64,000 nucleotides of DNA. Source: a bacterium. Its GTDB lineage: Bacteria; Patescibacteriota; Minisyncoccia; Phycocordibacterales; UBA918. Below, one piece after another: positions 3,569-63,456 of this stretch. Each line of letters starts with the position of its first letter. The stretch's first letter is position 1. The translations under genes were made by a program, and so were the position numbers. The stretch spans positions 8,216-72,215 of the forward strand of contig JAYSUD010000008.1 of the NCBI GenBank assembly GCA_043719295.1, read 5' to 3'. The notes below the pieces were generated by a model. That model worked only from the letters and a program-made list of their open reading frames with translations. It had not been told where the DNA came from and searched no databases.

Positions 3569-3600
3569 TGAGCAAACGAGTGAGAAAGTCTAGTAGACTT

Positions 3601-3655
3601 TTGCAAGAGGTTGACTACTATTTTGAAGTATGAAAAATACTGACAACCTGAACAG
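3601..3655 (+). repeat. ~50-nt nested-hairpin module (TTGCAAGAGGTTG-[inner hairpin]-CAACCTGAACAG). Related copies at 26608-26656 and, inverted, 28254-28302.
   Basis: The outer stem AGGTTG/CAACCT and the flanks GCAAG...GAACAG are conserved. The inner hairpin differs between copies. Confidence 0.6.
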
Positions 3656-4089
3656 CTTCTGTAAGAAGTAAGCGACTTTTGCATTTAGCAGAAGCAGGAC
3701 GCTAAGCGTATAAGCTTCCTTGGAGGTCGCTTATACGAAGCGTCTACATAAGATACATATAGTCTCACTGTCGTGATACTTATGTATCTAAACTGCTGGA
3801 CGTCTCTTATATTAGGAGATTATGACTCATACGCATAAATATAAAAAGTAGTTTTTCCATAAAATTAGGTTATAGTACAACTATATCTATAGGACAAAGC
3901 TTGCACGAAAAAATCATAATGTCCTCAGGCTATTGCAGAAGAAGTGAGCTAAAATTAAAAAAACACATAAAACTGCCTTAAGAGGCGGTTTTAGTGCGAC
4001 AGAGCATCATCTGACATATACACAAGCAAAACGTTTAAAGCTGTAGGGTTGAAAATCATATTCCAACTGAGGTAATACGCTACGTTTTC

Positions 4090-6261: not shown

Positions 6262-8700
6262 GTGATGTCTAAAAACAGGAGCCCACACATCAATATGAAT
6301 TACAAAAATATAAAAAAGAGAGCATCACGCACAGCAAGTTTTATGCTTCTAGTAGTATCACTCATTGCACCACTAACTTCAATGAACGTAGTAATAGTAT
6401 CCGCAGAGGAGATAGAAGTGAGTGAAAATACTGCCATAGACGAATCTGCATCTGAAACGAATTTAAATACAGTGAATGTTGAGAGTTCTGAAATAGGAAG
6501 TGAGAAAACTACTACTACAACAACGGACGAAATCACTCCACACATACCAAATGCCACAAGTACAGAAATCGAGAGTTCTGAAACTACATTACAAAATGAT
6601 ACTGTAACTGCAAGTTCAACAGTTGCGATAACAACTGGAGACACCATTGCGTTAGCAAATATTCTCACAATTGCAAATACTAACTTAGTTAATTCAACCG
6701 GTACTATTATTTTTTCAAATCTAATTGAAGATCAAGTATCTCCAATTGATTTTCGAACAAACAATACAGCATCGACTTCTTGTGCGCTCGTGTACTGTGA
6801 AAAAAATTCAGGAGTTGAAGTTGCTGTTGTTAATGATGCCTACATACATAATATATTGATGATTGAAGCACAAAGTGGCGACAATAGTGTAGAGGGCACT
6901 CTGACAGAAACCTCAGGAGCAATTGTAACGGGCAATGCGTACGCAGGTCTAAACTTGGTTAATGTAGCTAATTCAAATTTTATCGATTCTCATTACCTAC
7001 TCATTACACTAAACGCGTTTGAAGATGTACATGGTGACATTATATTTCCAAGCTTAAGCAATCTTTTAAGCAATCAAGCGATGGCACTATCTCAAACAAC
7101 AGTGCAGACTAATGTAGCAACTGTTGAGAATTCAACAAACGTTACTGCAGAAACTGGTGCCAATACCTCAAACAGTTTGGTGACGGAGATTATTACAGGA
7201 CAAAGTATTGCAACAACCAATGTACTTAATTTGATTAACAGCACACTCTCAGGTGGCGAGAGTATCTCTATTTTGTTACGGGTTCATGGTACGTGGCTTG
7301 GAACAATTTTTGGAGGTGATCCGCGTCTAAACATAACCGACGCGGGTGATGGGTACTACTATATAACTTCAAATAACGTTGACACCTCAGGTCAAAATAA
7401 TTCGCTTGTAACCGGCACTAGTACTGCCTTAATACACAACGATATCAAAGTACTTGCGGGCACTGGAAATAACACACTATCCGACGTTGAGTCAGGGTTA
7501 ATTGAGACAGGAAATGCATTTTCTGGGGCAAATATTGTCAATATTGCTAACACCAATATCATCGGTAGAAATTGGACCTTAGCAATTATTAACATCTTTG
7601 GAGATTTTATTGGGAACCTTTCTTTTGGACAGCCTGATGTATGGATTGGAGAAAAAATTGCAGTACCAAAGGTTGTTCAAAAAGGTAGTGAAATCACCTA
7701 CACGTTCACGGTAACAAACAATGGTGACGCACCATCAACGCGTACACGAGTTAGTGACGCCTATGCAGCTTCAAATTTAAGCATACTTGAAAGTTCAAAT
7801 CCGTACTTACTCGACGCTGATAACAAATTGGTTTGGGAAATAGGAACTCTGCCTGCGGGAGCAACATCTTTAATTACGTACAAAGCCGTTGTAACTTCAG
7901 ATATTCCCGCAACTAACATCACAAATGTCGTTACCGTTACTTCATACGAAACGGACTTCAATGATAGCAATAACACAGATACAGGCACAGTTAAAACATC
8001 AGTGGTAGGAAATACAACTCAAGGGAGTACTGCAAAACGTGCACAGGTATCTTCTCTAACCGCGCCAGATGTTTTAGAGACAAGGGATTTCGTTCCTCCG
8101 ATGGTCACTCGACTAAACGCTATTTCACGTGTAGCCGAAAGTACTAGTGTCTCTACGCAGACACTTGTTATCAAAAATCAAAGTGAAAAAAGTATTCCAA
8201 ATATTGTCCTTCATGATTATGTAATAAGTCAAAGCGGTGCACAGATAGCAGACGAAGTCTGGTCTATTGGCACACTCCTTCCTTATGAGGAAATTACACT
8301 TAGTTATGATATTTCATTTACACCAGATGCACCCAATGGTCACTATACGCTTTCTACGGCACTTATTATGGAGGATGCCGATATATCGTTTTATGGTAAT
8401 GGTTCTATAGATGTACTCCGCAATTCCCTACCGCTTGCGGATGAAGATTCAGTTGTTTTCTTATCAACTGCAATGATAGAGAGTGTGACACCAAATGAGG
8501 ACACTATCACAGACGATGTTTTCGAGCCAACCTTTGCTTCAGCAATTGGACTTACACCAAATATTGCAGAAGCTGCAGATACAACACAATTGGCATCAGT
8601 TGCTGCATCAAAAACGAATATCCCTTTATCACTTATAATAATCTTTGGAGTAATTGGGTTTCTCGTTCTTATAAGTGCCTACCGTGAGCTTCGTGACTAA
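6262..8700 (+). CDS. Large surface protein with a DUF11-like repeat region and a C-terminal membrane anchor.
   Basis: 812 aa. N-terminal signal/TM, Thr/Ser/Asn-rich beta-type repeats, the segment ITYTFTVTNNGDAPSTRTRVSD typical of DUF11/'conserved repeat domain', and a C-terminal hydrophobic anchor IIIFGVIGFLVLISAY. Start may be Met12 at 6295. Confidence 0.6.
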   Translation: MMSKNRSPHINMNYKNIKKRASRTASFMLLVVSLIAPLTSMNVVIVSAEEIEVSENTAIDESASETNLNTVNVESSEIGSEKTTTTTTDEITPHIPNATSTEIESSETTLQNDTVTASSTVAITTGDTIALANILTIANTNLVNSTGTIIFSNLIEDQVSPIDFRTNNTASTSCALVYCEKNSGVEVAVVNDAYIHNILMIEAQSGDNSVEGTLTETSGAIVTGNAYAGLNLVNVANSNFIDSHYLLITLNAFEDVHGDIIFPSLSNLLSNQAMALSQTTVQTNVATVENSTNVTAETGANTSNSLVTEIITGQSIATTNVLNLINSTLSGGESISILLRVHGTWLGTIFGGDPRLNITDAGDGYYYITSNNVDTSGQNNSLVTGTSTALIHNDIKVLAGTGNNTLSDVESGLIETGNAFSGANIVNIANTNIIGRNWTLAIINIFGDFIGNLSFGQPDVWIGEKIAVPKVVQKGSEITYTFTVTNNGDAPSTRTRVSDAYAASNLSILESSNPYLLDADNKLVWEIGTLPAGATSLITYKAVVTSDIPATNITNVVTVTSYETDFNDSNNTDTGTVKTSVVGNTTQGSTAKRAQVSSLTAPDVLETRDFVPPMVTRLNAISRVAESTSVSTQTLVIKNQSEKSIPNIVLHDYVISQSGAQIADEVWSIGTLLPYEEITLSYDISFTPDAPNGHYTLSTALIMEDADISFYGNGSIDVLRNSLPLADEDSVVFLSTAMIESVTPNEDTITDDVFEPTFASAIGLTPNIAEAADTTQLASVAASKTNIPLSLIIIFGVIGFLVLISAYRELRD

Positions 8701-11788: not shown

Positions 11789-12116
11789 TCCGGTGTAGCT
11801 CAGCGGTAGAGCAATCGACTGTAACATTGAACAATGTTCAAAATAGCAGCCTTATCGAGAAATTGATATTGCAAACAAGGTGAATTGCTGGAACCCCCAC
11901 GACACAAGTCAGGGCAATCAGCAGCCAAGCTTTTGGAGAAATCCAATTGAAGGTCCAGAGACTATCCCTTCGGGGAGTAGAATGCTCACAAATGCATTCG
12001 AAGCGCCTTGCACCGTCAGTGTAGTAATACAACCGGTGATGATATAGTCCACGCCATACAGTAACGTATGAATAAGTGTAATCGATTGGTCGCAGGTTCG
12101 AATCCTGCCGCCGGAG
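11789..12116 (+). tRNA. tRNA-Asn (anticodon GUU) interrupted by a group I intron in the anticodon loop. No CCA is encoded.
   Basis: Exons tccggtgtagctcagcggtagagcaatcgactgt + taatcgattggtcgcaggttcgaatcctgccgccggag fold into a 72-nt cloverleaf. Acceptor TCCGGTG/CGCCGGA, U8, T-loop TTCGAAT, G73, and a 5-nt variable loop that excludes Tyr. Confidence 0.75.
11823..12078 (+). ncRNA. Group I self-splicing intron (~256 nt) within tRNA-Asn.
   Basis: CCAAGCTTTTGG (P5-like), GTCCAGAGACTA (J6/7-P7) and ATATAGTCC (P7'/J8-7) match the group I consensus. The intron ends in G. Boundaries are good to about 2 nt. Confidence 0.7.
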
Positions 12117-12132
12117 CTTTAGAATTTAGAGA

Positions 12133-12153
12133 CCACCCGCAAGGGTGGTTTTT
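12133..12153 (+). terminator. Rho-independent terminator downstream of tRNA-Asn.
   Basis: ccacccgcaagggtgg followed by ttttt. Confidence 0.7.
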
Positions 12154-12162
12154 AAAATTCTT

Positions 12163-12184
12163 AGCTCCGGCGGCAGGATTCGAA
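12163..12184 (+). repeat. Perfect inverted copy (22 nt) of the tRNA-Asn 3' end.
   Basis: agctccggcggcaggattcgaa is the exact reverse complement of the tRNA 3' end ttcgaatcctgccgccggagct. Together with the tRNA it makes a ~35-bp inverted repeat enclosing the terminator. Confidence 0.85.
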
Positions 12185-12238
12185 GACCTTGCCTGATATC
12201 TTTTTGAGGTACGAAATAAAATAGTGACAAGGTGTACT

Positions 12239-12268
12239 GGTCGTGTAACGACCGAAATTCCTGCCGCC
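12239..12268 (+). repeat. tRNA-flanking module: hairpin with TGTAA loop, then GAAATTCC, then a direct copy of the tRNA 3' strand.
   Basis: ggtcgtgtaacgacc-gaaattcc-tgccgcc. The tail is complementary to 12170-12182. Homologous modules at 58386-58413, 62436-62462 and 63420-63456. Confidence 0.6.
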
Positions 12269-26401: not shown

Positions 26402-26607
26402 GTGTTTTGTATATATAATTGACAATACAAAAAGCATATACCATCGTATACAAAATGTAAAGTTAACTTTACATTTTATCTGTGGAAAAACTTAGGGGTG
26501 ATAAAATCAGAGGATTTATGAAAACGAGTGAGAAGTGATACAAAATCCACCACAAGAGTATTTCCATTTTTATAGTCGTCTTACGACTCCATAAAAATTA
26601 GGTCACT

Positions 26608-26656
26608 TCGCAAGAGGTTTCCTACTCTTTTGGAAAAAGAGTGAGAACCTGTACAG
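26608..26656 (+). repeat. Nested-hairpin module (same family as 3601-3655 and 28254-28302).
   Basis: tcgcaagAGGTTtcctaCTCTTTTggaAAAAGAGtgagAACCTgtacag. Confidence 0.6.
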
Positions 26657-26708
26657 TTCCTGTAAGGAACAAGAGAGATTAAGAAGTGTGCCGTTTCCAT
26701 AAAACCTG

Positions 26709-27324: not shown

Positions 27325-27696
27325 TCACACTGCTTGTTTTTTCTTCTTTGGCTTCGGTTTTGGTAATGAAGCAGAGAGTAACTGTAGAATTTCTGACAAA
27401 TTTTTAATCGAACGTATCTGTTCCTCTTCAACAACGTAATGTAATTTTGCACCAGTATAGGGAGAATCTTTTTCGCACATACTTTCAAGTTCAGAACTTG
27501 AAGGTACAATTTTTACATACAACAAATCATCACAGATAAGCGCCACAACTTTCCCGTCACAATACAAAGCATACTCCCCAAACATCGCTCTTGCTGTAAA
27601 AATGTGTGGTTTACGAGACCCCACATCGAAGACACCACCTTGTTGCCCTTCAAGAGTTTCAAGAATATGCGCAACAGTTTCTTTGTGGGTACTCAT
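27325..27696 (-). CDS. TfoX N-terminal domain protein.
   Basis: HILETLEG...ARAMFGEYALYCDGKVVALICDDLLYVKI matches the TfoX_N consensus. Confidence 0.65.
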   Translation of the reverse strand: MSTHKETVAHILETLEGQQGGVFDVGSRKPHIFTARAMFGEYALYCDGKVVALICDDLLYVKIVPSSSELESMCEKDSPYTGAKLHYVVEEEQIRSIKNLSEILQLLSASLPKPKPKKKKQAV

Positions 27697-27705
27697 TATA
27701 AGTAT

Positions 27706-28191
27706 CTATAAATAACTATCAAAATAGATTGCATGGCAAGTATAGCCACCCACATTCTTCTGCAAATAGTCCTGATGGTAACTTTCAGCAGGCCAAAAAC
27801 GTGTATACGGTTCAAGTGATGTAACAACAGGATTGTCCCAACGTTCACTCTCATTCACTACCTCAATCATCTCCTCTCCAATTTCTTTTTCTTTCTCATC
27901 TTTGTAGAAAATTGCAGAACGATACGAAGTGCCTTTGTCATTTCCCTGTTGATTTAAGGTTGTCGGGTTATGAACCTGGAAAAAGAAATCAAGAATTTGT
28001 TTGTATGAAATTACATTCTCATCATAGGTAACAAGAAGTGCTTCGGCGTGACCTTCATGTGATTCATACGTTGGATTTTCACCTTTGCCACCACTGTATC
28101 CAGCTTCAGTATCAAGAACACCTTTAAGATCACGAAAGAGTTCTTCCAATCCCCAGAAACACCCGCCAGCTATGATTGCTTCTTTTTGCAT
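27706..28191 (-). CDS. msrA: Peptide methionine sulfoxide reductase MsrA.
   Basis: MQKEAIIAGGCFWGLEELF... GCFWG active site. 161 aa. Confidence 0.9.
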   Translation of the reverse strand: MQKEAIIAGGCFWGLEELFRDLKGVLDTEAGYSGGKGENPTYESHEGHAEALLVTYDENVISYKQILDFFFQVHNPTTLNQQGNDKGTSYRSAIFYKDEKEKEIGEEMIEVVNESERWDNPVVTSLEPYTRFWPAESYHQDYLQKNVGGYTCHAIYFDSYL

Positions 28192-28250
28192 AGTTATTAT
28201 TATATTAAGAATTAACTTCTATTCTTTACTATCACCAGATAGCGACTCAG
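28151..28250 (-). repeat. Promoter/5'-CDS unit of msrA (copy 1, functional). Duplicated at 28487-28590 and, diverged, at 28321-28405.
   Basis: ~100 nt (ccccagaaacacccgccagctatgattgcttctttttgcatagttattattatattaagaattaacttctattctttactatca) recur nearly identically 336 nt upstream. Confidence 0.85.
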
Positions 28251-28320
28251 AATCTGTTCAGGTTGTCGCTCTTTTTCCAAAAGAGCAGGCAACCTCTTGC
28301 GAAGTGACATTTAGTCACTT

Positions 28321-28405
28321 CTCACCCCAGAAACATCCCCCTGCAAGTAAGGCTTCTTTTTGCATATAGTCTGATATATAAATTATGTACTTCTATTCTT
28401 ACAGA
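28321..28405 (-). pseudogene. Diverged decoy copy of the msrA start (would encode MQKEALLAGGCFWGEK*).
   Basis: On the minus strand reads ATGCAAAAAGAAGCCTTACTTGCAGGGGGATGTTTCTGGGGTGAGAAGTGA, then a hairpin and the nested-hairpin module. Confidence 0.6.
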
Positions 28406-28486
28406 ATCTGTCCACTCATTGGATTTTTTATTTCACTTCGTTCATAAAAACTCACAATGAGTCTTGCGACAGTCCCCCGGACTGTC

Positions 28487-28590
28487 TCACCCCAGAAACA
28501 CCCGCCAGCTATGATTGCTTCTTTTTGCATAGTTATTATTATATTAAGAATTAACTTCTATTCTTTACTATCAGTAGATAATGACTCAGG
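28487..28590 (-). pseudogene. Near-identical decoy copy of the msrA promoter plus first 14 codons, followed immediately by a hairpin and a U-run terminator.
   Basis: Minus-strand RNA: ...ATGCAAAAAGAAGCAATCATAGCTGGCGGGTGTTTCTGGGGTGAGACAGTCCGGGGGACTGTCGCAAGACTCATTGTGAGTTTTTAT. Confidence 0.7.
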
Positions 28591-28633
28591 ACCTGTCAAT
28601 TTGTCACTATTTTTAAAATAAAGTCACCTGACT

Positions 28634-29248
28634 TTATTTAATTTCTACTTGTACTTCATTACGATTCATCCAAGGTGGTGTCCATGGTGCATTGTATCCT
28701 GCGTACGAAGGTGTACCCACAATCACAACGCCATCTTTTGAAAGTGCATCTTGCAATAGTCTTTGTTTTTCAATTACACGTGATTCAGAACGAAACCAAG
28801 AAAAACGAAGTACCGCTATTTTTTGTGCTGGCACTTCTTTTAGGCTCACTCGTGCATCATTTGGAACAGGGAGTGTTGCCAATGTATATGAAGCTGGCAT
28901 CACAAATGAAATAACACGAGACGATCCTTCTAAACTCGCAACAACAGGGGCTGTCATTGCAATTTTTTCAGATGTCTTTTGAGTAACAGGAGCCGTCATT
29001 GCAATTTTTTCTTGAGCAGTATTGTCTCCAAAAATATATCCTGCAATAATACTAAATCCTTTGTTTAACGATTCGTCGTACGAACCTTCAACAGTGGTCT
29101 CTGCCACAATTCGAGCTTTATATTCCCGCACTTCATACATGCCTTCTTTTTTAAGAACCCCGTACTGTGCCTGTTCAACATTTGACCCAAAGTAACCCCA
29201 CACAGACCAAAGTACTAAAACAAGTACAACAATAATTAAAAATTTCAT
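28634..29248 (-). CDS. SOUL/HBP heme-binding family protein with an N-terminal membrane anchor.
   Basis: YEVREYKARIVAETTVEGSYDESLNKGFSIIAGYIFGDNTAQEKIAMTAPV... is SOUL-domain-like. A second IAMTAPV repeat is present. Confidence 0.5.
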   Translation of the reverse strand: MKFLIIVVLVLVLWSVWGYFGSNVEQAQYGVLKKEGMYEVREYKARIVAETTVEGSYDESLNKGFSIIAGYIFGDNTAQEKIAMTAPVTQKTSEKIAMTAPVVASLEGSSRVISFVMPASYTLATLPVPNDARVSLKEVPAQKIAVLRFSWFRSESRVIEKQRLLQDALSKDGVVIVGTPSYAGYNAPWTPPWMNRNEVQVEIK

Positions 29249-45304: not shown

Positions 45305-45470
45305 AAGTACAGTATACCTTACAGGTACTGTCTACTCACTTGTTTTTTATCCACTCCGTTCCCAAAAGACTCAGTGAGTCTTGCGAAATGCTTCAAGCAT
45401 TTCTCACCATGCACCAGTAGCGAACATGTTGCTATGTGTGGATGAATACTCTGAAAGTGATACAGAATAA

Positions 45471-53870: not shown

Positions 53871-54227
53871 TCAGAAAACCGTGCCACAAGCTCCGATTTT
53901 CTTAGGCCCTAAAGAAGTCGTAGTCGCAAGAATTTTCCCTTGCCAACCGTTTCGCTCCGTATTAGCGCGATTGATTGCGTCAATGGCTTGACGCGTCTGA
54001 CCTGCAAAAGGCTTCCGCACAACCAACAGTGTTTGAACAGGAGCAACAGGCTCTGCTACAATCCGCACCGGTGCCAAAGCAACTTTTTTCTTAGGCTTTT
54101 TTGGCACCTTTGATGCATCCAAGGCAGGCAAAATTGAATTTTCGCCAAAATATTTAAGCTCTTGCCTTGCTGGTATACGTGGACTTCCTTTAGGCATTTT
54201 GCCCCTCACTTTCTTTTGTTTAAACAA
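53871..54227 (-). CDS. Hypothetical basic protein.
   Basis: 118 aa, Lys/Pro-rich, no recognised motif. Confidence 0.3.
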   Translation of the reverse strand: MFKQKKVRGKMPKGSPRIPARQELKYFGENSILPALDASKVPKKPKKKVALAPVRIVAEPVAPVQTLLVVRKPFAGQTRQAIDAINRANTERNGWQGKILATTTSLGPKKIGACGTVF

Positions 54228-54300
54228 ACTGGTCTTTCCAGCAAGTGCTATTTAACCATACTAACTGTTTTTGTCAACTTTTTGCATCATTGTATATGTG

Positions 54301-54592
54301 TATGCGGAGGTCTATTGTTATTGGAGAGTTCCAGCAGTTTCTGCTGAGCCTAGTGTAGGACACTGCTAACGCTGAGGTCCTACACTTGTCTCTAGGTCAG
54401 CAGCAGAAACTGTAAACAAAGTTCGCCATTGTCGCTTGCGTATATGCGGAGTCATATTGTTGTTGGAGAGTTCCAGCAGTTTTCGCTGAGTAACATTCAA
54501 AGCACAGCTAACGCTGAGGCTTTGAATGTTACTCTGGGTCAGCGCAAAAACTGGGTGAAAAGCGAATACTTGGAGCTTCGCAAGACTCATTG
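54301..54592 (-). repeat. Two tandem copies (C 54301-54440, D 54441-54592) of the hairpin repeat element in inverted orientation; a third partial unit at ~54640-54675.
   Basis: Both units share the tatatgcggag...gagagttccagcag leader and the ctcagcgttagc(a/t)gt loop (rc). Their stems differ but stay complementary (covariation). Confidence 0.7.
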
Positions 54593-54724
54593 AGGTTCTA
54601 TGGAACGAAGTGGAGTAGAATCCAATGAGTGGACAGCTTCTGTAAGAAGAGGAGTTCGCCATTCTCGCTTGCGCTCTGTGGCTCACTCCTTGCTAACAAA
54701 CCGTTACGGCCATACAATGAATTT

Positions 54725-56275
54725 ATGCGAACGGTTAAAGAAATACTGGTTGAACTTAACTCTCCTACCGAGGCTGATACGGTCCTTATTAATAAGGCCT
54801 ATGCACTCACCTCTTTGGCTTTTAGAGACATTAAACGCTACTCAGGTGAACCGTACATGTCACACATTTCTGAGGTGGGCTACAAGCTTGCAAAAATGGG
54901 TATGGGGCCACGTACTATCGCGGCTGGTTTGCTTCACGATATCATTGAGGATACCCCAACTACAGCTGACGACATCAAAGAACAGTTTGGAGAAGAAATA
55001 CTCTTTTTGGTTGAAGGGGTTACTAAACTAAGTTCTGTACGCTACTACGGAACGGATCGCCACAACGAAAGTCTCCGAAAACTTTTTGTCGCTACTTCTC
55101 AAGATATCCGTGTGTTAATCATTAAGCTTAATGACCGGCTCCACAACATGGAAACGTTACAGTTCGTTCCCAAAGAAAAGCAAATGCGTATCGCACGCGA
55201 GACCCTAGAAATCTACGTACCAGTTGCCCACCGTCTTGGAATGGGGCGAATTCGTAAGGAACTTGAGGACCTTGCCTTTCCCTATGTGTATCCAGAAGAA
55301 TATAAAAAAGTATGTGACCTTCTTGCAAAGAGCACTGAGAAGTCACTTCTCATGCTTGAGCGTGAGCGTAAATCAATGCAAAAACGTCTTGCTGATTCTG
55401 GACTCCTTAAGTTTAATACCTCATATCGAGTAAAAGGTCTCTATAGCCTCTTTCACAAACTCAAGCGAAAAGATTGGGATATTCATGACGTATACGACCT
55501 CCTTGCGATGCGGGTTGTAGTTAACTCTGTTGAGGATTGTTACAAGGCACTTGGTGTCATTCACGAAATGTGGCGACCATTGCCAAAACGAATGAAAGAC
55601 TACATTGCATTTCCAAAACCAAACGGCTATAAATCAATTCACACAACAGTTACGACACCTCACGGGACAATTCTTGAAATTCAAATTCGTACTCAACAGA
55701 TGCATCACGAATCAGAGTACGGAGTTGCATCACACTTGATCTATAAACAACAGGCAGTGCAAGGTGACCAAATAGCTTCAACAAGTTCTTGGTTTAGTAA
55801 CCTTATTCCATCACTGTTTAAACCATTCGCATGGAAAGAAAGTAAAAATTCTGTTCCGATTAAAAGTGCGAAAGATGTGCCCCATACAGAAAAAATTCCC
55901 TATTGGATAAACCAGATTGGTGAAATGTACGCGTCGGAAAAAACTACTGGTGAAGAGTTCATGTCCGACATGCGTAAGGATTTCTTCAGTAACAGAATCT
56001 TCGTTTTTACTCCAAATGGCGACGTTGTTGATTTACCCATGGGTGCAAACCCTATCGACTTTGCATACGCCATCCACTCAGAAATTGGTGACCATATTGC
56101 GGGGGTTCATGTAAACAACAAACTCGTGCAGTTTGATACAGAACTTAAAAATGGTGACATCGTGCGCGTTGAAACAAAGAAGTCTGCACACCCAACTGCA
56201 AAGTGGATTTTGATGGCACAGACGTCGATTGCAAAACGGAAGATTAGAGCGTACCTTGCTGAACATTCAGTGTAG
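54725..56275 (+). CDS. Small bifunctional (p)ppGpp synthetase/hydrolase (HD + RelA/SpoT synthetase + TGS, no ACT domain).
   Basis: HD motif (LLHDIIEDT), synthetase region (DLLAMRVVV...YKSIHTTV), TGS (VFTPNGDVVDLPMGANPIDFAYAIHSEIG). Start at MRTVKEIL, after the repeats. Confidence 0.8.
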   Translation: MRTVKEILVELNSPTEADTVLINKAYALTSLAFRDIKRYSGEPYMSHISEVGYKLAKMGMGPRTIAAGLLHDIIEDTPTTADDIKEQFGEEILFLVEGVTKLSSVRYYGTDRHNESLRKLFVATSQDIRVLIIKLNDRLHNMETLQFVPKEKQMRIARETLEIYVPVAHRLGMGRIRKELEDLAFPYVYPEEYKKVCDLLAKSTEKSLLMLERERKSMQKRLADSGLLKFNTSYRVKGLYSLFHKLKRKDWDIHDVYDLLAMRVVVNSVEDCYKALGVIHEMWRPLPKRMKDYIAFPKPNGYKSIHTTVTTPHGTILEIQIRTQQMHHESEYGVASHLIYKQQAVQGDQIASTSSWFSNLIPSLFKPFAWKESKNSVPIKSAKDVPHTEKIPYWINQIGEMYASEKTTGEEFMSDMRKDFFSNRIFVFTPNGDVVDLPMGANPIDFAYAIHSEIGDHIAGVHVNNKLVQFDTELKNGDIVRVETKKSAHPTAKWILMAQTSIAKRKIRAYLAEHSV

Positions 56276-58167: not shown

Positions 58168-58317
58168 TGTGACGAGGAGAAAGCAAACTTCTTTGCTTTT
58201 GTGAGGGTGTCGAAAGACGGAACGATGCCGAAGGCAAGTGAGCCGGGGTCGCAGAAATTTCTGAAAGAAATTATCTGTGACCGCCCACCGAGGAACAAGT
58301 GACTGAATGTCACTTGT

Positions 58318-58413
58318 GGGAGGGGGTCGAAAAGGTTGCCTGATATTTTGTGACGTAAGGAAACAAAATATCGATAACCTGTACTGAACATGTAATGTTC
58401 GATTCCCCTCGAC
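58318..58413 (+). repeat. tRNA-Leu flanking modules: inverted copy of the tRNA T-loop/acceptor (58318-58331) followed by the TGTAA-hairpin module (58386-58413).
   Basis: gggagggggtcgaa = rc of ttcgaccccctccc. Then gaacatgtaatgttc-gattcc-cctcgac. Confidence 0.55.
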
Positions 58414-62075: not shown

Positions 62076-62462
62076 CTCGAGTAAAGAAAAAACATAATGC
62101 TGAAGCATTATGTTTTTTCTTTAGAACCTGACCTGCGTCAGGTTCGTGCTCGAGCGAGAGACGGAGACATGTCGCCTGCGACAGTCGAGTCGGGGTCGAG
62201 AGTACTTATGATTTGAGGAGGTACGACGATAATCATTAGTAACTCGTGACCGCAGTGAGCCCACGAGGCATAGCTTTTTGAAAAAATGCGTAGTGCGATT
62301 CGAAGCCCGATTGAGATAATTTTGGAGCGAAGCGAACAAAATTATCCAATTGGGATACTGGTCGTGTAAGCAAAGCTTTCTTTCACTGCATTCCTATTAC
62401 AAATAAAAATGAACTTTTCTTTGAATACTCATTTGTGAAAGTAACGACCGAAATTCCTCGTT
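62076..62462 (+). repeat. Highly structured tRNA-Trp 3' flank: nested stems pairing with the tRNA 3' end, then the TGTAA-hairpin/GAAATTCC module.
   Basis: gctcgctcgag (62071-81) pairs ctcgagcgag (62151-60). gagcccacgagg (62257-68) is the exact complement of the tRNA 3' cctcgtgggctc. Module gtgaaagtaacgaccgaaattcctcg at 62436-62462. Confidence 0.55.
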
Positions 62463-63295: not shown

Positions 63296-63456
63296 GGCGT
63301 CGGGAGGGATTTGCACCACAAGAGTATTTCCATTTTTATATTCCCTTCAGTCATTAAAAATTAAGTCAAGACCTTTTGAGATAGATTTGACTGAAAGGAA
63401 AATATACCCAAAAGGTGTACCGGTCATGTAATGACCAAAATTCCCTCCCGGCGCAC
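63296..63456 (+). repeat. tRNA-Tyr flanking modules: inverted 3'-end copy (63296-63313), a 27-nt block shared with 26546-26572, and the TGTAA-hairpin module ending in a direct copy of the tRNA 3' strand (63420-63456).
   Basis: ggcgtcgggagggatttg is close to rc of caaatccctcccggcgc. caccacaagagtatttccatttttata is repeated at 26546. ccggtcatgtaatgacc-aaaattcc-ctcccggcgcac. Confidence 0.6.

Follow-up and report, generated by a model that had tools for sequence, protein, structure and literature searches.

Tandem copies of the msrA start in a patescibacterial genome as probable scars of a structured, non-coding mobile element

Introduction

Some integrative elements of bacteria restore the gene into which they insert. 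Examples are the lambdoid phage 21 and e14, which reside in icd, and the islands in the 3' ends of transfer RNA (tRNA) and transfer-messenger RNA genes. Other bacterial repeats are small and structured, such as the Rickettsia palindromic elements, the Neisseria Correia elements, REP/BIME sequences and the palindrome-associated elements derived from IS200/IS605. The genomes of Patescibacteria are tiny and are considered poor in mobile elements. Here, we analyse 64,000 nucleotides (nt) of contig JAYSUD010000008.1 from the patescibacterial assembly GCA_043719295.1 (hereafter the window), where the gene msrA is preceded by two additional copies of its own start, each of which is followed by a folded module of about 90 nt that we call M. 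As in the gene-restoring elements, direct repeats of the gene end flank the insert and the gene itself is intact. Unlike those elements, the inserts are 130–340 nt long without an open reading frame (ORF), and no recombinase was found nearby.

Results

Three copies of the msrA start

The window contains an intact msrA coding sequence of 161 amino acids on the minus strand (27706–28191; Pfam PMSR, E-value 5e-59). The encoded protein has an exact match in the public collection and relatives in Patescibacteria at 84–88%. Reading on the minus strand, we observed that the 440 nt upstream of msrA contain two additional copies of the gene start, each composed of the first 40–41 nt of msrA and an AT-rich, -10-like stretch. 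A first-pass annotation of the sequence had described three tandem starts with a period of about 170 nt, and this arrangement was recovered by the repeat finder as an 81-nt repeat with spacings of 174 and 165 nt between the three copies. Copy 1 is attached to the gene (28151–28257, of which 28151–28191 is the head part). Copy 3 (28490–28596) had been given as about 98% identical to copy 1 over 100 nt; near-identity holds, with all 41 coding nt the same, while the measured value is 94% over 107 nt. Copy 2 (about 28320–28400) is diverged, as had been noted. It is 70–75% identical to copy 1 and reads MQKEALLAGGCFWGEK before a stop; the eight differences within the 41 nt correspond to four synonymous codons and two Ile-to-Leu replacements.

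The two unattached copies, which we refer to as orphan heads, both end exactly at TTCTGGG^G (the caret marks the junction), that is, 2 nt past the TGG of the catalytic GCFWG motif, and both then continue into M. The orphan head of copy 2 (MQKEALLAGGCFW...) lies at 28326–28365 and that of copy 3, which is identical to copy 1, at 28491–28530 (both minus). The orphan ORFs in the array have 16 and 43 codons, and the longer one is opened by copy 3 and enters the adjacent module.

Module M is a structured family

In M, the order of parts is GUGAGA, a hairpin (P1), GCAAGA, a long-range helix (P2) around a further hairpin (P2a), UGNACAG and a hairpin (P3) with a CUGUAAG loop. M has three helices and a length of 75–105 nt, with about 90–100 nt being typical. 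It has no terminal inverted repeats, as inverting one of its ends (GTGAGA...) does not give the other (...CTGTAAG). The array contains two complete copies on the minus strand. M_C (28220–28325; covariance model 68.1 bits, E-value 3e-15; fold z-score -5.3) has a P2 of the class GGUUGCC/GACAACC and a 19-nt hairpin insertion in the loop of P3, whereas M_D (28394–28490; 83.8 bits, E-value 4e-19; fold z-score -4.4) has a P2 of the class CUCAUUG/CAAUGAG.

Each module is followed by a short piece of msrA from beyond the insertion site. Between M_C and the attached head lies such a remnant (GAAGT..., compare GGAAGAAC) and then AT-rich filler (28192–28219, minus), with TATAAT 7 nt upstream of the msrA ATG; equivalent stretches are present in other lineages. 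The unit of copy 2 has its own remnant (GAAGTAC) and AT-rich filler (28366–28393, minus), and this filler resembles that of L028 and L123. The third stretch, at 28531–28615 (minus), combines the filler and -10-like stretch of copy 3 with what is left of an older module resembling M_C, namely its 3' half (the 3' strand of P2, ACAG and a P3 whose loop has the 19-nt insertion of M_C). Its repeat with 28192–28275 has 94% identity as far as 28596, beyond which a weaker match extends to about 28615. The array in the window consists of three heads and two and a half modules and, because copy 3 is preceded by the tail of an older module, at least three rounds of insertion are recorded.

To find further copies of M, we scanned a genome collection with a pattern built from the conserved single-stranded motifs, for which we estimate about seven matches by chance. 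The scan yielded at least 117 loci, nearly all labelled as Patescibacteria or its lineages; Paceibacteria, Kaiserbacteria and Zambryskibacteria are among the matches listed. An alignment of 88 sequences contains 18 consensus pairs, with compensatory changes in 11 of these. The proportion of paired alignment cells is 97.8%, compared to 76% in shuffled alignments and about 48% when the partners are slid, and the covariation score is 0.587 compared to 0.18. Furthermore, G-U pairs are several-fold commoner in the helices than A-C pairs, and thus the fold is selected on this strand, either as RNA or as single-stranded DNA. At the gathering threshold, a search of the whole window against Rfam 15 returned only tRNAs and one group I intron elsewhere; at an E-value of up to 10, no family was found in 28100–28700 and 54200–54760, and the best matches in 28100–28700 had E-values of 0.5–6, far below threshold. 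A literature search did not find a description of the element. M is most likely a previously undescribed family of structured elements of Patescibacteria.

The first-pass annotation had placed an intrinsic terminator directly after copy 3, in what we now recognize as M_D. The terminator scan detected no site in 27600–28800. In the minimum-free-energy fold, the claimed stretch (ACUCAUUGUGAGU-UUUUU) is the 5' strand of the long-range helix P2: ACUCAUUG pairs with CAAUGAGU 40 nt downstream, and the U-run pairs with an A-run inside P2a. P2 covaries over the 88 family members. Thus, a local GC-rich hairpin with an unpaired U-run, by which an intrinsic terminator is recognized, is not present in that region.

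A strict sigma-70 scan for two hexamers called no promoter upstream of the three msrA starts. TATAAT-like -10 elements can be read from the sequence 7–10 nt upstream of the ATG of each copy. A near-consensus promoter (TTGCTA, 17 nt, TACAAT; 54690–54727) was observed at relA/spoT (54725–56275), where it ends 7 nt before the ATG. Read together, this promoter and the -10 boxes near the msrA starts suggest that leaderless messenger RNAs, or messenger RNAs with very short leaders, may be used in this organism.

The same architecture recurs at msrA and at other genes

We found that the order of orphan gene end, M, 5–25 nt of downstream target, short filler and intact gene recurs in other genomes and at other genes. 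The GCFWG site of msrA is affected in about ten lineages: the window, L093, L028 and L123 and, retrieved by a metagenome scan for the msrA junction, L129, L133/L135/L141/L142, L137/L143, L140, L144/L145 and L146. These lineages differ in the P1 and P2 subtypes of M. In every lineage, the whole insert comprises 130–340 nt and includes no coding remnant, and an intact second msrA head follows the remnant and filler wherever the downstream sequence is present. L142 and L135 contain arrays of two or three modules. In the relatives L001, L003 and L125, msrA is present without an array.

The 3' end of msrA is a target as well, with M in antisense orientation (L004, L005 and L083). In L004 (2960–3240), and similarly in L005 and L083, two reverse-oriented modules lie downstream of msrA, and each abuts a duplicated msrA 3' end (TCHAVYFDSYLKS and CHTIYFDSYL, each followed by a stop). 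Thus, a second conserved msrA site, GGYTCH, is a recurrent target.

At tRNA genes, the order is the 5' part of the gene up to the D-loop sequence GGTAGA, M, 13–22 nt from past the site, 25–50 nt of filler and the complete tRNA. M occurs in sense orientation at the D-loop of tRNA-Val, Ile, Asn, Tyr and Thr. In antisense orientation it occurs at the 3' end of the 5S ribosomal RNA (rRNA) gene and of the genes for tRNA-Leu, His and Phe; T-arms are among the tRNA sites. Two further genes, for a GH1 glycosidase and for RNase HII, show the same architecture at their heads.

Some additional observations concern tRNA genes and assemblies. Just downstream of tRNA-Asn, Leu, Trp and Tyr, the window contains variant modules (12118–12253, 58299–58400, 62278–62374 and 63365–63436, all plus), each composed of an inverted copy of the tRNA 3' end, GAAGA-P2-GUACUG-P3 and a direct copy of the tRNA 3' end. 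These variants have the mirror design, with the replacement gene end 5' of the core. The tRNA gene at 11790–12115 (plus), apparently a tRNA-Asn with the anticodon GTT as read by eye, carries a group I intron in its anticodon loop (Rfam match 11828–12071, 80 bits), and this host tRNA is not called by ARAGORN. Complete tRNA copies downstream of M in L017 (about 7300–7400) and in L084 are likewise not called by ARAGORN, and they have additional sequence behind the anticodon stem, which suggests introns here too. Lastly, contigs of the nearest msrA relatives break in or near the repeats of module and head: L123 and L124 begin inside M, and P0002 and P0003 are about 1 kb long. Arrays of heads and M probably fragment metagenome assemblies, and they may mislead the calling of gene starts.

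M is a discrete insertion with a target preference

M was observed as an insertion within other repeats. A second repeat family, which we call H, consists of GUGAGA-P1-GCAAGA or an inverted T-loop, followed by CCGGAGCG, a hairpin, CGAGNCGG^GUCGC, a second hairpin and GUGAC. It has no Rfam match. In the window, H repeats lie at 54298–54439, 54440–54700, about 58200–58285 and about 62150–62255; they are also present in L023, L024, L113 and L127. H can carry the 5' head of M, and it often hosts M at CGG^G. Both in L113 and in the window (54298–54700), H repeats with and without M at the same internal position lie side by side. Furthermore, M is nested in an older M in L123 and in L135/L142.

The 5' flank of M has a G at position -2 in 72% of the copies and a G or A at position -1 in 85%. 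Position +1 is a G in every intact target that is readable by eye. Target positions +1 to +3 are taken by the three nt that come after CUGUAAG and form the 3' strand of P3.

The duplication of gene ends is polar

To quantify the duplication, we compared the two flanks of all copies with enough flanking sequence. Of 106 copies, 12 have the 16 nt upstream of M again within 300 nt on the downstream side; a downstream flank that is repeated upstream, the mirror arrangement, is present in at most one. Over seven to eight independent kinds of site, the short gene-terminal piece always lies 5' of M. Symmetric slippage combined with selection does not predict this, and thus we take the polarity to be a property of the insertion process. 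The first-pass annotation had offered illegitimate recombination at a module insertion site as one possible origin of the array. Its direction stands; a one-off event, in contrast, does not fit, as the heads are a regular polar by-product of insertion.

Which of the heads is the resident one can be decided in L137. There, the orphan head and the msrB stop share 8 nt (ATGATTAG), and the same overlap is present in L001, which has no M (ATGAATAA). Thus, the orphan is the original head and the attached head came with M. The differences between orphan and attached heads are mostly synonymous or conservative, which fits evolution in different functional msrA genes and not decay in place.

Other copies of M in the window

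The covariance model detects about ten copies of M in the 64-kb window. Besides the modules in the array, these include copies at 3580–3669 (plus, 80.6 bits) and, downstream of a gene with the Pfam domain Dus, at 45314–45407 (minus, 71.6 bits). The latter is the second hairpin motif that had been noted earlier at 45373–45412. A further copy lies at 54555–54650 (plus, 71.7 bits) in the second of the two tandem 142-nt H repeats upstream of relA/spoT (Pfam RelA_SpoT). The copy at 26529–26669 (plus, 54.5 bits) has an insertion of about 65 nt in P1, as seen from the sequence.

Insertions within M were also observed. A sequence of about 55–65 nt (CCACCACAAGAGTATTTCCATTTTTATA..TAAAAATTA) is common to two modules, at about 26536–26600, where it is the P1 insertion just described, and at about 63305–63360; it may be a further tiny insertion element. 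The 19-nt hairpin in the loop of P3 (AGUCGCUAUCUGGUGAUAG) is found between CUG and UAAAG at 28236–28254 and 28575–28593 (minus), and L141 has an insertion of about 75 nt at the same position of the loop. Lastly, the gene for a SOUL haem-binding protein adjoins the array and contains a 27-nt direct repeat with a spacing of 42 nt (28943–29011, minus), which duplicates the peptide EKIAMTAPV....

Discussion

A proposed cassette with a replacement gene end

We conclude that the array is probably the scar of repeated invasions of msrA by M, a structured, non-coding and non-autonomous mobile element family that arrives as part of a cassette. M would insert in a single orientation at ..G-R^G.. sites at the 3' edge of highly conserved motifs, which at this locus is TTCTGGG^G. 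The inserted unit would be a cassette of M, a few nt from past the target site, AT-rich filler with a -10-like box and a replacement gene end. Upon insertion, the old head would be stranded upstream of M as an orphan, while the head of the cassette would join the gene body, such that msrA stays intact. As the junction between head and GUGAGA resembles the target anew, more cassettes, or unequal recombination between heads, could then build tandem arrays. We infer that whole cassettes are transferred from genome to genome, and that integration relies for its homology or recognition on the conserved motif with which the head ends on its 3' side (GCFWG, the D-loop, the T-loop or the RNase HII motif DEVG). 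For instance, a circular or concatemeric form of head, M, remnant and filler that integrates via the head would yield exactly the observed product and the arrays.

New insertions could be created by a trans-acting, strand-polar enzyme that joins the 5' end of M to a 3'-OH of the target or, alternatively, by a reverse transcriptase whose template transcript ends right after M. Such activities are suggested by the strand polarity and by junctions that are precise on the 5' side and ragged on the 3' side. That the enzyme is a single-strand or rolling-circle transposase of the HUH type, or a reverse transcriptase, is conceivable but doubtful. Target-primed reverse transcription with a bottom-strand nick, duplication by a staggered cut and double-strand-break repair from an M allele were rejected on paper, as they predict M beside a full-length gene or the mirror order, neither of which was observed. 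In a search for guides by eye, the M subtypes at the same msrA site had no common segment that matches the target.

Several observations weigh against invasion by a mobile cassette. No transposase, reverse transcriptase or integrase is found by Pfam among the about 40 ORFs of the window, and an all-against-all clustering of 2660 ORFs from the 117 loci shows no protein family enriched near M. M is absent from the viral contigs scanned, and no split 'autonomous' element, in which the 5' and 3' halves of M would lie apart, came out of a search for such forms. About 80% of the copies have no flank duplication, and thus M alone can also be the inserted unit. No near-identical copies at different loci were seen (the best pair, L023/L025, reaches about 92% by eye), so that any recent mobility of M would be conjecture. 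In addition, the cassette model does not account for how the first cassette at a new target arose, only the msrB overlap in L137 decides the phase of the repeat unit (M to head or head to M), and the enrichment at gene ends could partly result from selection on survivors.

A broader reading is that M represents a new class of selfish 'homing' element: a folded RNA or single-stranded DNA of about 90 nt that targets universally conserved motifs, works without splicing, carries a spare gene end and a minimal promoter, and is moved by a trans-acting strand-polar enzyme such as an HUH transposase, a reverse transcriptase or an RNA-guided recombinase. We put this forward tentatively. If it is true, the head GUGAGA-P1-GCAAGA, which is common to M, H and the variants at tRNA 3' ends, would make M part of a larger modular system specific to Patescibacteria.

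Alternative explanations

The alternative that survives best is that M is a structured RNA of benefit to the host (a signal for processing, stability or insulation, or the scaffold of a small RNA) that spreads passively, with the duplicated ends arising by slippage or unequal crossing-over and being kept by selection. The strong conservation of the single-stranded motifs, the covarying helices and the selection on one strand are consistent with a functional RNA, as are the high density of M in a very small genome and the lack of a mobilising enzyme among the window ORFs or enriched near M. We nevertheless consider this explanation unlikely. The excess of orphans 5' of M (12 compared to at most one) is not expected from symmetric slippage, and independent M subtypes are found at exactly the same msrA nucleotide in different lineages. 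Furthermore, M is nested in M and in H repeats, and the orphan heads appear foreign or divergent and not decayed in place.

The array might instead be regulatory. The first-pass annotation had read it as an attenuator or promoter trap, in which tandem promoters and leaders end as short terminated transcripts or peptides and control msrA under oxidative stress. Every head has a -10-like box and an ATG, there are orphan ORFs of 16 and 43 codons, and transcription from the upstream heads must cross structured RNA. This reading does not hold up in our analysis and is very improbable: the U-run of the proposed terminator is paired inside a covarying helix, and msrA occurs without the array in L001, L003 and L125. 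A leader peptide is impossible at tRNA and 5S rRNA genes and antisense at gene 3' ends, where the same unit is present, and with no terminator we ruled out a leader-peptide attenuator. As the architecture is also found at GH1 and RNase HII genes, it is not a device specific to msrA or to oxidative stress.

It is also possible to regard the orphan heads as attachment scars of larger integrative elements, such as prophages or islands, that brought a replacement 5' end and later lost their interior, with M as part of the attachment region. Direct repeats of gene ends around foreign DNA are the signature of such elements, and in the window, small elements with inverted and direct copies of the tRNA end lie behind the 3' ends of tRNA genes. 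The small size of the insert and the lack of a coding remnant in every lineage, the failure to find an integrase nearby and the repeated complete deletions that arrays of two or three units would need make this origin hard to accept.

That mis-assembled strain variants produced the repeats is extremely unlikely, since the units differ in module subtype and head sequence and comparable arrays are present in numerous independent assemblies, some of them on contigs of 60–620 kb, even though the window itself comes from a metagenome-assembled contig and contigs of close relatives break in the region (L123 begins inside M).

Significance

The view that these genomes carry few mobile elements contrasts with M, a single structured element that is present about ten times within 64 kb and whose family recurs across Patescibacteria. 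A replacement gene end would constitute a third route by which a parasite can occupy conserved gene sites, beside introns (RNA splicing) and inteins (protein splicing). The cassettes would rewire the promoters of housekeeping genes and create orphan mini-ORFs and pseudo-tRNA halves, and the arrays would be a cause of contig breaks and likely of mis-called gene starts in metagenome-assembled genomes. In addition, M may mark entry points of horizontal DNA in these genomes. Should an enzyme or RNA-guided step take part, this might amount to a site-specific insertion activity of a new kind.

Comparison with known systems

Several described element types can be set aside. Membership in the miniature inverted-repeat transposable elements of DDE transposons was ruled out by the lack of terminal inverted repeats and by the duplicated flank, which is 12–110 nt long, one-sided and separated from M by the target remnant. 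The P2 strands (GGTTGCC...GACAACC or CTCATTG...CAATGAG) do not fit the order and sequence RYYYAAC/GTTRRRY of an integron attC site. The differences between copies are not adenine-specific and no reverse transcriptase was found nearby, which rules out a diversity-generating retroelement. A search for CRISPR-like arrays gave just a weak sub-threshold match on the wrong strand.

M resembles homing introns and inteins in that it targets catalytic or universally conserved motifs (GCFWG, the D- and T-loops of tRNAs and DEVG of RNase HII), and its start GUGAG and its branch-like UGNACAG resemble minimal group II/III introns (5' GUGYG). However, the gene is rescued by a spare end and not by splicing, and M has no domain V and no Rfam hit. 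With 75–105 nt, three helices, a 5' GUGAG and no Rfam match, a group II intron was ruled out; an intron with GU..AG ends and the 5' end GUGAG was ruled out as well, because the joined flanks restore neither msrA nor the tRNAs.

As in the omega RNA scaffolds of TnpB and IscB, a structured RNA of about 100 nt adjoins target-derived sequence. In contrast to these, no TnpB or IscB was seen in the window ORFs, M subtypes at one target have no common target match and the three nt next to M differ from the target. With HUH rolling-circle transposons (IS91 and Helitrons), M shares the strand polarity, a precise 5' end that adjoins a short motif of the target, a hairpin close to the 3' end and the lack of a classical target-site duplication; similar to their one-ended transposition, downstream flank is captured up to a target-like sequence. 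Different from HUH transposons, no HUH gene was identified, M is far smaller and what is captured as flank is in every case an end of the resident gene itself. Set against the IS200/IS605 type, M has P1 near the 5' end, P3 at the 3' end and the G-R^ preference, which may or may not correspond to the subterminal hairpins and the strand-specific insertion next to a short motif of that type; a polar flank duplication is not known for that family, and neither TnpA nor TnpB was found in the window ORFs scanned.

Similar to the small structured repeats of bacteria, M is abundant, non-autonomous, hairpin-rich and about 100 nt long; it is intergenic, sometimes lies inside genes and can supply promoter elements. 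It differs from them in having no terminal inverted repeats, a precise 5' end (GUGAGA) and three covarying helices, and in the polar duplication of 12–110 nt of its 5' flank. To our knowledge, such a duplication has not been described for families of small structured repeats.

Compared to integrative elements, the insert is small and non-coding, usually replaces the 5' end of the gene including the -10 box, and comes without a detectable integrase; its constant part is a folded module of about 90 nt and not an attachment site with arm sites. Nevertheless, the cassette lies inside a conserved gene and brings a substitute gene end, the displaced end stays as a direct repeat and serial integration leads to tandem arrays, just as in these elements. 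Integrative elements with a substitute gene end offer the closest known logic to the M cassette.

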